The notes under the pieces are model-generated. The model was not told the DNA's origin. It did no database searches and saw nothing but the letters and a program-made list of their open reading frames with translations. A program made the translations under genes and the position numbers. From a virus (Duplodnaviria > Heunggongvirae > Uroviricota > Caudoviricetes): a stretch of DNA of 13,457 bases. This document shows, piece by piece, positions 8,243-11,316 of the stretch. How positions within the stretch are numbered: the stretch's first letter is position 1; each line of letters begins with the position of its first letter. The DNA is taken from IMG/VR virus record IMGVR_UViG_2541047433_000025; one strand, written 5' to 3'.

Positions 8243-8497
8243 ATGAACCAGAAAACACTTGAAGATGTAATCAAAACTGTTCGCGTTTCTGTTGTGGCCG
8301 ACGTTTGTGGTGTCAGCCAAAGAGCAATCTACAAATGGATGGATAACGGTAAATTGCCTCGCACAGAATATACCGGCGAAACAAATTACGCTGAAAAAAT
8401 CGCTCATGCATCAAACGGATTATTTTCTGCCGATGCAATTTTAACTATTGGCAGAAATAAAACTACTACGAAAAAGCTGATGGGAGTTGATTCATGA
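8243..8497 (+). CDS. ydaS: YdaS-like small protein, 84 aa from ATG at 8243 (track ORF starts at 8171)
   Basis: ATG at 8243 is preceded by GAGGGTG. The 8171 start would leave no room for a promoter after the racR start. Stop overlaps the ydaT start (ATGA). Confidence 0.7.
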   Translation: MNQKTLEDVIKTVRVSVVADVCGVSQRAIYKWMDNGKLPRTEYTGETNYAEKIAHASNGLFSADAILTIGRNKTTTKKLMGVDS

Positions 8498-8916
8498 AAA
8501 TCAAGCATGAGCACATCGAATCAGTGTTGTTAGCCCTGGCAGCCGAAAAAGGGCAGGCGTGGGTCGCTAACGCAATTACTGAAGAATATCTGCGCCAGGG
8601 GGGCGGCGAATTGCCCCTGGTACCAGGCAAGGACTGGAACAATCAGCAGAATATCTATCATCGTTGGTTGAAAGGTGAAACGAATGCGCAAAGGGAAAAA
8701 ATTCAGAAACTGATCCCTGCGGTTCTGGCAATTCTTCCTCGCGAGCTGCGTCACCGACTCTGCATCTTCGATACCCTGGAACGCCGTGCATTACTGGCGG
8801 CACAGGATGCACTGAGTACGGCAATTGATGCGCATGATGATGCAGTCCAGGCCGTTTACCGTAAAGCACATTTCAGCGGCGGCGGTTCTCCTAGCGATTC
8901 TGTCGTAGTGCATTGA
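8494..8916 (+). CDS. ydaT: YdaT-like protein, 140 aa
   Basis: Track ORF, GGGAG SD, translationally coupled to ydaS. Length and position match Rac ydaT. Confidence 0.8.
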   Translation: MKIKHEHIESVLLALAAEKGQAWVANAITEEYLRQGGGELPLVPGKDWNNQQNIYHRWLKGETNAQREKIQKLIPAVLAILPRELRHRLCIFDTLERRALLAAQDALSTAIDAHDDAVQAVYRKAHFSGGGSPSDSVVVH

Positions 8917-8929
8917 TTGAAATTAATCG

Positions 8930-8951
8930 TACCGAACTGTTTTGTTCGGTA
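8930..8951. repeat. Inverted repeat TACCGAAC-N6-GTTCGGTA between ydaT and ydaU
   Basis: Perfect 8-bp arms with a 6-nt loop. No T-run follows, so it is not a convincing intrinsic terminator; may be a protein-binding site or RNA stem. Confidence 0.4.
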
Positions 8952-8961
8952 TCAGTTAAAT

Positions 8962-8980
8962 GTAACGCTGCGAGCGTTAC
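8962..8980. repeat. 19-bp palindrome GTAACGCTGCGAGCGTTAC, copy 1 of 3, just upstream of the ydaU start
   Basis: Perfect 8-bp inverted arms around 3 nt, read directly from the sequence. Confidence 0.7.
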
Positions 8981-8993
8981 AAGGTGAAAACAA

Positions 8994-9782
8994 ATGGCTT
9001 CAAACTGGATAAAGCTCGAAGTTATTACGCCGGATAAGCCGGAAATATTCAGGCTTGCTGAGATTCTGAATATTGATCCAGATGCCGCATTAGGGAAAGT
9101 CATTCGCTTCTGGGCATGGGCGGATCAACAAATGATAGACGGTAACGCAGAGTGTAACGCTCGCGGCGTTACAAAAAGTGCAATAGATCGCATCACTTTT
9201 ATGGCTGGTTTTGCTGATGCGTTAATTCAGGTTGGATGGCTGGTCGAAACTAATGGTGTGTTGTCGCTTCCTAACTTTGAGCGCCATAACGGGAAAAGCT
9301 CTAAAAAACGGGCGGTTACAAACGAGAGAGTAACAAAAATACGAGAACTGAAACGAAAAGGTAACGCTGCCAGCGTTACAAAAACGGATCAAAAAGCGTT
9401 ACCAGAGGAAGAGAAAGAGGAAGATATAAATACTTATCTCCCCCTAAATCCCCCTCGCCAAAAACGAGCGTCTAAAAAATTCGAACCGGAGGCTATCGAG
9501 CTGCCTGACTGGTTGCCGGAAACACTCTGGCATGAGTGGGTTCAGTTCAGGCAGGCATTGCGAAAACCGATTCGAACGGAGCAGGGCGCTAACGGGGCGA
9601 TACGGGAGCTGGAAAAATTCCGCCAGCAGGGTTTTTCACCTGAGCAGGTGATTCGACACAGCATCGCCAATGAATACCAGGGCTTGTTCGCGCCGAAAGG
9701 TGTTCGGCCAGAGACGTTGCTCCGACAGATTAACACCGTCTCGTTTCCGGACAGTGCGATCCCGCCAGGCTTCAGGGGGTAA
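8994..9782 (+). CDS. ydaU: Phage replication initiation protein, lambda O-like role (YdaU-like), 262 aa
   Basis: Track ORF directly upstream of the DnaC-like gene. Contains internal palindromic repeats (see repeat features). An in-frame stop 3 codons upstream fixes the start at 8994. Confidence 0.75.
   Translation: MASNWIKLEVITPDKPEIFRLAEILNIDPDAALGKVIRFWAWADQQMIDGNAECNARGVTKSAIDRITFMAGFADALIQVGWLVETNGVLSLPNFERHNGKSSKKRAVTNERVTKIRELKRKGNAASVTKTDQKALPEEEKEEDINTYLPLNPPRQKRASKKFEPEAIELPDWLPETLWHEWVQFRQALRKPIRTEQGANGAIRELEKFRQQGFSPEQVIRHSIANEYQGLFAPKGVRPETLLRQINTVSFPDSAIPPGFRG
9154..9172. repeat. 19-bp palindrome GTAACGCTCGCGGCGTTAC, copy 2 of 3, inside ydaU
   Basis: 7-bp inverted arms GTAACGC/GCGTTAC around 5 nt; an extra half-site GTAACGC at 9142-9148. 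Confidence 0.7.
9361..9379. repeat. 19-bp palindrome GTAACGCTGCCAGCGTTAC, copy 3 of 3, inside ydaU
   Basis: 9-bp inverted arms around 1 nt; GTTAC half-sites also at 9315-9319 and 9330-9334. Confidence 0.7.
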
Positions 9783-9788
9783 CAGACC

Positions 9789-10535
9789 ATGAAAAATATT
9801 GCGACAGGCGGCGTTCTGGAACGTATCCGCAGACTGGCCCCGCCACATGTAACCGCGCCATTCAGGACGGTGGCGGAGTGGCGCGAGTGGCAACTTGCAG
9901 AAGGCCAGAAACGTTGTGAGGAGATCAACCGTCAGAATCGTCAGTTGCGGGTGGAAAAAATCCTGAATCGCTCCGGCATACAGCCGTTGCACCGCAAATG
10001 CTCGTTTGCGAATTACCAGGTGCAGAACGACGGCCAGCGATACGCGTTGAGTCAGGCGAAATCTATCGCTGACGAACTGGTTACCGGATGCACAAATTTC
10101 GCGTTCAGCGGAAAACCTGGTACCGGAAAAAACCATCTGGCGGCGGCTATCGGGAATCGCCTGCTGAAAGATGGCCAGACAGTGATTGTGGTTACCGTGG
10201 CTGATGTTATGAGCGCCCTGCACGCCAGCTATGACGACGGGCAGTCAGGCGAAAAATTTTTGCGGGAACTGTGCGAAGTTGATCTGCTGGTTCTTGATGA
10301 AATTGGTATTCAGCGCGAGACGAAAAACGAGCAGGTGGTACTGCACCAGATTGTTGATCGCCGGACAGCGTCAATGCGCAGCGTGGGGATGCTGACAAAC
10401 CTGAACTATGAGGCCATGAAAACATTGCTCGGCGAGCGGATTATGGATCGCATGACCATGAACGGCGGGCGCTGGGTGAATTTTAACTGGGAGAGCTGGC
10501 GCCCGAATGTTGGTCAGCCAGGTATTGAGAAGTAA
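9789..10535 (+). CDS. ydaV: DnaC-like AAA+ helicase loader (lambda P-like role), 248 aa
   Basis: Walker A motif [15 protein letters not shown] and Walker B-like [16 protein letters not shown]. Follows the initiator gene. Confidence 0.88.
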
Positions 10536-10557
10536 TTTTTACCGGGAGGAAATTTTA

Positions 10558-11316
10558 ATGGAGACCGTTTTTGACGCACTGAAAGCGATGGGAAAAGCCA
10601 CGTCGGTAGAACTGGCTACGCGACTTGATATCAGTCGAGAAGAAGTGCTGAACGAGCTGTGGGAACTGAAAAAGGCTGGCTTCGTTGATAAAAGCGTATA
10701 CACCTGGCGCGTGGCTGATAACAACGTTCAGCAGGAACAGCCAGCGCCAGAGCTGCCGGAAGAAACCACCATGGCAACAGTAGCGAAAATCTCAGAGTGC
10801 GATTTAACCGCGACGATTGAACAACGTGGCCCACAAACGGCGGATGAGTTGGCTACATTGTTCGGTACCACATCACGCAAAGTAGCTTCAACGCTGGCAA
10901 TGGCTATCAGCAAAGGACGCCTGATTCGCGTAAACCAGAACGGTAAATTTCGTTACTGCATACCGGGCGATAATTTACCAGCAGAGCCGAAAGCAGCATC
11001 GGTAGCGGAAACTGATGGTAAGGCCTTTCCTCAGCCCACAGGTGTTGCGTTACCAGTACAGGAGGCTGCAACACAGGAAGATATTAAAACAGAAACGGTG
11101 GCGGACATTGTGCAGTCGCTGCCATCGTTTACTGAAACGCGAGCGGATGACCTGGTTTTACCATCGCTGCATATGGCAAACCGCGAACTGCGTCGGGCGA
11201 AAAATCATGTCCAGAAGTGGGAGCGAGTCTGCGCCGCGCTGCGGGAGCTGAACAAGCACCGGGATATTGTTCGACAGATTTTCGATTCCTCCAGTCGTAT
11301 TGTGTCGGAAAAGTGA
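10558..11316 (+). CDS. ydaW: YdaW-like phage protein of unknown function, 252 aa from ATG at 10558
   Basis: Track ORF (269 aa from an upstream start); ATG at 10558 is preceded by GGGAGG. Lies immediately after ydaV as in Rac. Appears full length here. Confidence 0.6.

Follow-up and report, generated by a model that had tools for sequence, protein, structure and literature searches.

A replication origin placed inside the gene of its own initiator is a classical arrangement. In the Bacillus phage SPP1, the initiator G38P binds repeats in its own gene (oriL), and a second set of sites lies at a distance. In phage lambda, the origin is situated in the middle of gene O, where 19-bp imperfect inverted-repeat iterons are bound by dimers of the O protein and adjoin an AT-rich tract; unwinding requires at least two iterons together with this tract (PMC7466680). 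An active origin, oriJ, has been reported for the Rac prophage of Escherichia coli K-12 (PMC3945230). Here, we analyzed a 13,457-nucleotide stretch of Caudoviricetes DNA (IMG/VR record IMGVR_UViG_2541047433_000025; the whole stretch is called the window below), in which three 19-bp palindromes, or dyads, of the form GTAACGC-N5-GCGTTAC lie in and just upstream of a gene for a putative replication initiator. With a probability of roughly 0.7, we consider these dyads to be the initiator-binding sites of a lambda-like origin located inside the initiator gene. What is new is the initiator family, the split layout in two to three clusters, and the existence of specificity classes. The elements concerned are as follows, with all positions referring to the window.

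8962–8980, dyad 1, GTAACGC-TGCGA-GCGTTAC, in the intergenic region between ydaT and the initiator gene; proposed auxiliary or autoregulatory initiator-binding site
8994–9782, plus strand, initiator gene; 262 amino acids, WP_001304174, annotated as hypothetical
9142–9148, direct half-site GTAACGC, 12 bp upstream of dyad 2
9154–9172, dyad 2 (cluster A), GTAACGC-TCGCG-GCGTTAC, in the codons for the N-domain loop of residues 47–60
9315–9334, degenerate pentamer half-sites, GTTAC (9315–9319) and GTAAC (9330–9334), the weakest members of the set
9361–9379, dyad 3 (cluster B, proposed origin core), GTAACGC-TGCCA-GCGTTAC, in codons for the disordered linker
9396–9402, terminal inverted half-site GCGTTAC, a full heptamer
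9404–9439, plus strand, candidate DNA-unwinding element; a polypurine (GAGGAA/GAAGA)n tract followed by a ATATAAATACTTAT patch

The arrangement resembles lambda ori, including its variants in Stx phages, in several respects. The proposed origin is in the middle of the initiator gene, between the N-terminal DNA-binding and the C-terminal domains, its inverted repeats are 19 bp long and suited to a dimer, a strand-asymmetric low-stability tract adjoins them, and the gene for the helicase loader comes next. As in lambda, the N-domain and the sites are exchanged together, and extra sites add residues, here through a 12-bp (4-codon) insertion (PMC7466680). In contrast to lambda, the window initiator is not a homolog of O (no Pfam match at E up to 10), and instead of four to six contiguous iterons (~100–150 bp), it has sites split into two to three clusters spaced by about 200 bp. 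One cluster of the family lies inside N-domain codons, and one lies upstream of the gene in a single subclade; cluster B mixes a full dyad with half-sites phased at 11–12 bp, and the candidate for unwinding is a (GAAGA)n polypurine tract.

SPP1 G38P belongs to an unrelated family (phrog 'replisome organizer' at E = 0.0066), and the second SPP1 origin is tens of kilobases away, compared with 200 bp here. With the Rep proteins of iteron plasmids (RepE of F, pi of R6K, and RepA of pPS10 and pSC101), the apparent likeness consists of an initiator of predicted winged-helix type, an inverted repeat before its own gene, and phased direct repeats beside an unwinding element. This analogy suggests that dimers may bind the dyads and that arrays may form on the direct repeats. 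Unlike the plasmid systems, the sites here are in coding sequence and the initiator has a DnaT/YdaU-like C-domain, with no sequence or significant structural match to the Rep proteins.

Dyads and half-sites in the initiator gene

A sequence-only reading of the window had reported palindromes at 8962–8980, 9154–9172 and 9361–9379, separated by about 192 and 207 bp. All three are present at these positions as exact, perfect 19-mers, and the spacings are correct as start-to-start distances between dyads 1 and 2 (192 bp) and dyads 2 and 3 (207 bp). No further copy of GTAACGC-N5-GCGTTAC was found in the 13.5-kb window, even with two mismatches; the chance expectation estimated from shuffles was 0.04, and none of 200 shuffles reached three dyads. 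Eight of the 10 heptamers (GCGTTAC or GTAACGC) in the window fall within 8962–9402, where 1.18 are expected, and the pentamer GTWAC occurs 10 times in the same 441 bp compared with 0.95 expected (Poisson P = 7e-8).

Among the additional half-sites that had been proposed, the one at 9142–9148 is a full heptamer, whereas those at 9315–9319 and 9330–9334 are merely pentamers, and the full GCGTTAC at 9396–9402 had been overlooked. The 9142–9148 half-site arose by the 12-bp insertion relative to most homologs and is weaker than the dyads, reading GTAATGC in four of eight E. coli variants. Position 9332, within the second pentamer, also varies among these variants (GTAAC to GTTAC).

Dyad 1 ends 14 nucleotides before the ATG (8994) and abuts the Shine-Dalgarno sequence AAGGTG (8981–8986), and dyads 2 and 3 are within the 262-codon open reading frame (ORF) 8994–9782. 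The earlier placement of the first palindrome before the start codon and of the other two inside the ORF is thus right, but the name ydaU given to this ORF is not, as it is not the ydaU gene of K-12. The location of sites inside coding sequence had also been called unusual; for such origins it is not, lambda ori being in the middle of gene O (PMC7466680).

Conservation of the dyads at the DNA level

Relatives of the initiator N-domain (residues 1–140) were found in 59 phage records, at 29–100% identity, and in at least 573 viral contigs, and the N-domain family comprises 1,694 protein clusters at 90% identity. The window allele itself is present in 688 of 5,426 complete E. coli genomes (12.7%), O157:H7 included, and the family also occurs in epsilon15, TL-2011b, Xanthomonas CP2 and many Pseudomonas, Ralstonia and Vibrio phages.

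The GTAACGC dyad is found at the same two gene offsets in phages of Escherichia, Klebsiella, Xanthomonas, Pseudomonas and Ralstonia whose initiator proteins share 41–65% identity. Ten genes of this GTAAC class were compared: those of the window, TL-2011b, Klebsiella ST11-OXA245phi3.2, Xanthomonas CP2, Usme, Pseudomonas PAN70, VW-6S, Ralstonia YL1, CBW1004C-Prop1 and ctnlZ23. The dyad, occasionally imperfect, is at +149 for site A (+161 in the window, which has the 12-bp insertion) and at ~+357 to +381 for site B; across the GTAAC-class phage loci, site A is at +149 or +160, and across the family, the offset of site B ranges from +345 to +390. A further 78 of 79 Pseudomonas-type loci from viral contigs keep the +150 site together with half-sites at +174, +344/356 and +381.

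Wobble positions were then compared in 55 alignment columns with a conserved residue across the ten genes, which span 46–62% GC. Apart from the site codons, wobble conservation in these columns was 30–89%. The wobbles of GGT, AAC and GTT at site A were invariant in 10/10 genes, and those of AAC and GTT at site B in 8/8; the TTA/GAA/GAG codons of the terminal half-site and the purine tract were also invariant. In TL-2011b and the Klebsiella phage, site B is read in another frame and encodes V-T-P-T-A-L instead of G-N-A-A-S-V, yet the dyad is kept. Within E. coli, eight variants of 94–100% identity showed no change at any of the 42 arm positions, compared with changes at 4/15 spacer positions (p = 0.0035) and 43/463 other positions (p = 0.039). 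As comparative evidence, these results show that the dyads are under selection at the DNA level; the palindromes are conserved as DNA while the surrounding codons vary, which is what the sequence-only reading had asked to be checked.

The same data bear on the idea that selection acts on a repeated peptide, G-N-A-x-x-V-T, with the DNA symmetry as a by-product. Dyads 2 and 3 of the window are indeed in the same frame, and both encode xNAxxVT. However, dyad 1 is noncoding, the frame of site B differs in the two phages mentioned above, and not even a GC content of 62% has altered the synonymous positions. In other clades, the dyad symmetry persists although the encoded peptides are unrelated. The encoded peptides, moreover, lie in a loop of lower predicted local distance difference test (pLDDT) score and in a disordered linker. 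The probability of a peptide-level explanation is practically negligible.

Dyad classes and their association with the initiator gene

A motif-free search for recurring dyads was performed in more than 130 loci, and five classes of dyad were obtained.

GTAACGC-N5-GCGTTAC, in the window and most phages of the ten-gene set
GTCCGC-N7-GCGGAC, in epsilon15, phiPSA1, Carin1 and ~80 contigs
GTAGACG-N6-CGTCTAC, in the Raharianne group
GTCAC-N9-GTGAC, in Vibrio phages
TGGCGC-N5-GCGCCA, in a few metagenomic contigs, as a single dyad

In the four best-sampled classes (all but TGGCGC), the arms are identical at both clusters of a gene. Half-site density is 18–42 per kb in two sharp clusters, compared with at most 3 per kb in the flanks. 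When viral contigs were scanned for dyad pairs without reference to any protein, at least 120 stretches were retrieved, and 120/120 lay inside a homolog of the N-domain at the canonical offsets. The neighboring genes differ between phages, so the initiator is the only gene that is always present. Shared and jointly changing arms are what a single sequence-specific binder would predict.

That binder could be a protein other than the initiator: YdaT, the helix-turn-helix proteins YdaS or repressor, the winged-helix protein with DUF1627, or a host factor. The module does encode several DNA-binding proteins, and binding by the initiator itself is deduced from sequence. On the other hand, the neighboring genes are wholly different among phages that share a dyad, and the constant partner is the initiator gene (120/120 listed loci). 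YdaT has a footprinted box of its own that is unrelated to GTAACGC and lies separately at 8487–8504 (PMC11879457, PMC9986795), which excludes this protein within the limits of its known specificity. Both the GTAACGC and the GTCCGC classes occur in the same host genus (Escherichia/Salmonella), which argues against a host factor. We therefore regard another binder as improbable. A restriction or modification target was also considered and rejected: the dyads were found only inside the initiator gene (120/120 listed), and methylase genes are present in some members only.

Phased half-sites and the adjoining low-stability tract

Cluster B has the same layout in every class. Direct half-sites are followed by the dyad, an inverted half-site, the sequence C(A/T)(A/G)AGAAGAGAAGA..., an ATAT patch and often C-run or G-run elements. 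After dereplication, 171 family members have C(A/T)(A/G)AGAAGA... directly after their last inverted half-site. Half-sites of the same orientation are 11–12 bp apart in 179 of 237 neighbor pairs and 22–24 bp apart in 39, corresponding to one and two helical turns.

Within 8900–9800, no 30-mer is less stable than that at 9408–9437 (99.6th percentile of the window), and no 40-mer anywhere in the window is richer in purines than the one beginning at 9391. DNA-level conservation of the polypurine tract extends to every dyad class. Among E. coli strains, the (GAGGAA)n tract at 9404–9425 varies in length by one hexamer (+6/-6 bp), which adds or removes Glu-Glu in the linker.

The initiator protein and its neighbors

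A Rac-type prophage adjoining ttcA in E. coli E2863 matches the window with 100% identity; its gene order is intR, xisR, ralR, recT, recE, kilR, sieB, repressor, a ydaS-like gene, ydaT, the initiator ORF, ydaV and a DUF1627 gene. The initiator protein matched phrog_2509, 'replication initiation protein', along its entire length (E = 3.2e-88, residues 1–262 on profile positions 1–277 of 277), and phrog_678, 'O-like', matched its C-terminal part only. No Pfam family was found at E up to 10, and hence neither Phage_rep_O nor DUF1376; a PADLOC search of the initiator returned nothing, and an NCBIfam search gave only a match of 19 residues to the tail of DnaT. These last 19 residues (244–262, window 9723–9779) resemble the extreme C-terminus of E. 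coli DnaT (NF002770, E = 0.0038), and many homologs contain the DnaT-like domain PF17948, which binds single-stranded DNA. The DnaT-like tail hints at a contact of the initiator with the DnaB/DnaC machinery. The gene directly downstream in the window is

9789–10535, plus strand, ydaV, DnaC/IstB-like AAA+ helicase loader (PF01695 2e-20, PF00308 2e-8)

and in several of the homologous phage loci, too, the initiator gene is followed by a DnaC- or DnaB-like gene. The ORF after ydaV (10507–11316) encodes a DUF1627 protein with weak N-terminal winged-helix matches; its K-12 counterpart, ydaW, is truncated. Immediately upstream of the initiator gene in epsilon15 (locus L007, 504–1508) and in a Vibrio phage (locus L008, 342–1511), a gene for a C5-cytosine DNA methyltransferase overlaps the initiator start.

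An AlphaFold2 (AF2) model was built from a 61-sequence alignment; a single-sequence model gave pLDDT below 50 for the N-domain. The predicted layout comprises a winged-helix-like N-domain (residues ~11–100), a basic helix (103–124) with invariant K104, R106 and R112, a disordered linker (125–170) and a YdaU/DnaT-like C-domain (176–248). A Foldseek search of the model against the PDB gave no significant match, and a profile search of the PDB with the initiator gave none. In the model, the peptide encoded by dyad 2 lies in a lower-confidence loop (residues 47–60) and that encoded by dyad 3 in the disordered linker, so the sites appear to be placed where the protein can accommodate them. Cluster B (9315–9402) encodes residues 108–137, in which the basic helix ends and the linker begins, just before the homology to K-12 YdaU begins (residue 139), and cluster A is inside the N-domain. 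Residues 109 and 113 (9318–9320 and 9330–9332) are on one face of the basic helix. Beyond residue 15, they are the sole positions not encoded by the sites that are conserved within dyad classes and differ between them, being T/V in the GTAAC class, D/K in the GTCAC and GTCCGC classes, and K/Q in the GTAGAC class.

The features of the C-domain raise the alternative that single-stranded or supercoiled DNA extrudes the dyads as hairpins or cruciforms, which the DnaT-like C-terminal domain would read as signals for primosome assembly or priming. The DnaT-like single-stranded DNA-binding domain of homologs, the DnaT-like last 19 residues and the perfect 7–9-bp stems of the dyads are all in keeping with this. 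However, it is the N-domain, rather than the C-domain, that the concerted change of the dyads follows. K-12 YdaU, which has the same C-domain, lacks such dyads, and the phased unpaired half-sites are left unexplained. This alternative is very improbable.

Relation to K-12 ydaU and oriJ

The sequence-only reading had named the gene ydaU and the sites a possible Rac origin, oriJ. Neither identification holds for K-12. The BLASTP match to K-12 YdaU is limited to residues 139–262 of the initiator (124 residues, 79% identity). The N-domain of K-12 YdaU is DUF1376 (PF07120, 2.7e-26), which the window protein does not match, and an hhalign comparison of the two N-domains gave a probability of 0.2%, indicating no detectable relation. 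GTAACGC/GCGTTAC heptamers are absent (0) from the 7.5-kb K-12-type locus. Because the initiator is not K-12 ydaU, the element is not K-12 oriJ. A sequence-level map of oriJ was not found in the literature searched, and the MG1655 record has no oriJ feature. In K-12 ydaU (locus L002, 3590–3900), direct and inverted TGTTCAA(ACA) repeats are located in the linker codons, directly before CCCCCCCTAAATCCCCCCC; from their sequence and position, these are candidate iterons of K-12 oriJ. One element is common to the two genes despite their unrelated N-domains:

9440–9454, plus strand, CCCCC-TAAAT-CCCCC element, after the AT patch, at the apparent border of the exchangeable N-domain/origin cassette

As K-12 has its own repeats at the equivalent linker position before this shared element, the N-domain and the repeats act as a single exchangeable cassette, as with O and ori in lambdoid phages. 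In strains M9 and STEC307 (L101 and L102), homology to the window ends directly after ATATAAATACTGATCT (~9436–9440) and a different sequence follows; the initiator gene of these strains is annotated as a partial pseudogene. To judge by the alignment, this breakpoint is a recombination border of the N-domain/origin cassette, just before CCCCC-TAAAT-CCCCC. Related C-run elements, some with a following G-run, were seen in distant family members (L004, L006, L011 and L013).

Compared with oriJ and ydaU-ydaV of K-12, the window thus has the same prophage type, the same integration site next to ttcA, the same flanking genes ydaT and ydaV, the same C-terminal initiator domain, and repeats at the same linker position before the shared element. 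It differs in that K-12 has the DUF1376 N-domain and TGTTCAA repeats and lacks GTAACGC/GCGTTAC. In position, the window element corresponds to oriJ, as part of an initiator/origin cassette that has been swapped.

The upstream dyad and neighboring elements

An upstream dyad was found at -32 to -44 in 30 of the 120 listed pattern-scan loci and at -93 in one more; most family members are without it. Relatives of 72–86% protein identity have the same upstream dyad 14–25 nucleotides before the ATG, although the flanks and the upstream genes are non-homologous. Wherever the dyad is at -32 to -44, site A is of the +160 form, and the upstream dyad is therefore a footprint conserved in one subclade. 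Its place beside the ribosome-binding site suggests either autoregulation, which we infer, or an extra anchor of the complex.

The location of dyad 1 bears most directly on the alternative that all dyads are transcriptional operators only, bound by the initiator or by another repressor and causing autoregulation or a roadblock of the ydaS-ydaT-initiator-ydaV transcript, with the origin elsewhere. Dyad 1 is directly before the ribosome-binding site and is conserved in diverged relatives, the wide spacing of the dyads resembles that of looping operators, and many plasmid Rep initiators repress their own synthesis through inverted repeats. Against this, most family members keep both in-gene clusters without an upstream dyad, cluster B is invariably joined to the conserved polypurine/low-stability tract that an operator would not need, arrays of half-sites phased at 11–12 bp are typical of origins, and no promoter-like site was found near any dyad. 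We consider a purely transcriptional role unlikely. The more specific model of dyad 1 as an operator over a promoter was not supported, as no sigma-70-like promoter was detected at 8600–9800. Intrinsic terminators were also rejected, with terminator-like matches on the minus strand only and a T-rich tail only at dyad 3.

Between ydaT and dyad 1, an 8-bp hairpin, TACCGAAC-TGTTTT-GTTCGGTA, is present at 8929–8952, with no T-run after it on the plus strand. Three substitutions in E. coli (8931, 8935 and 8937) all change Watson-Crick pairs to G.U on the plus strand, which suggests a structure at the RNA level. The dyads themselves could in the same way be mRNA hairpins with a role in stability, processing or translational control. 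The RNA of 8917–9010 folds into two hairpins (z = -4.2), arm changes between clades keep the pairing, and the neighboring hairpin has the RNA-type G.U substitutions just described. However, a common arm sequence that changes jointly at separate sites would not be expected of independent hairpins, and isolated, phased half-sites have no partner to pair with. Non-wobble mismatches occur in imperfect dyads (right arm GCGTTAG in PAN70, arm CCGTTAC in CBW1004C), and Rfam gave no match. An RNA-level role of the dyads is extremely improbable.

Further upstream, a perfect TTGATT-N6-AATCAA inverted repeat is located at 8487–8504 (TTGATTCATGAAAATCAA), with the start codon of ydaT (8494) in its spacer. 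This repeat matches the published footprinted 'YdaT-box', (A/T)TGATT-N6-AATCAA (PMC11879457, PMC9986795).

A model of the origin

In the proposed model, dimers of the initiator N-terminal domain would bind the dyads in duplex DNA. The origin core would consist of dyad 3 with its flanking half-sites (9315–9402) and the polypurine/AT-rich tract at 9404–9439; the initiator would assemble on the phased sites, and the adjoining low-stability tract would open. The YdaU/DnaT-like C-domain may then hand over to the DnaC-like loader YdaV and the host DnaB helicase, following the logic of lambda O and P. Dyads 1 and 2 would be auxiliary, probably strengthening or looping the nucleoprotein complex, and dyad 1 may let the initiator throttle its own expression. 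The identity of the binder, the firing of the origin, looping and autoregulation are the parts of this model that we infer.

The proposal that the sites are initiator-binding sites or an origin in the initiator gene, as first made from the window alone, has strong comparative support in the DNA-level conservation, the concerted change, the exclusive association with the initiator gene and the adjoining unwinding-type tract, and on the whole it is partly supported. Several points weigh against it. The literature searched contained no experimental binding or replication data for any family member, and any factor inherited together with the dyads could in principle account for their clade specificity. 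The full dyads of the window are ~200 bp apart, compared with the contiguous sites of lambda, and distant dyads, at 192–300 bp and all constrained to multiples of 3, have no consistent helical phase; the dyad-to-dyad distances of the family as a whole span 207–300 bp. Cluster B of the window is less regular than that of its relatives, with one dyad, one heptamer and two bare pentamers, and the candidate unwinding tract is moderately AT-rich (~67% over 9400–9439). A search for sigma-70-like promoters in 8600–9800, and hence near dyad 1, gave no match. Finally, excised K-12 Rac DNA has been reported to be replication-defective (PMC11879457), and prophage copies may therefore be inactive.

It is possible, though doubtful, that the family has a distinct and widespread origin architecture rather than a copy of that of lambda. 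In such an architecture, the basic helix would recognize the sites, as residues 109 and 113 track the dyad class, two to three clusters ~200 bp apart would be bridged by looping, and autoregulation would be coupled to the opening of (GAAGA)n. If this is true, one cluster would be written into the codons of the initiator's own DNA-binding domain and one would lie over its ribosome-binding-site region, and classes that are one base per half-site apart (GTAAC and GTCAC) would be a ready system for specificity co-evolution.

Significance

The initiator family has no Pfam domain and no solved structure, and no published origin, whether for epsilon15, TL-2011b or other members, was found in the literature searched. 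For this uncharacterized family, which is very common in E. coli and in many phages, the analysis provides a precise map of the proposed origin, including dyads, phased half-sites, the candidate unwinding tract and the cassette borders. The gene called 'ydaU' in many Rac-like prophages belongs to an initiator/origin cassette other than that of K-12, a difference that matters for annotation and for work on Rac replication and oriJ. The clade-specific dyads represent natural specificity swaps for studying the co-evolution of initiators and origins.

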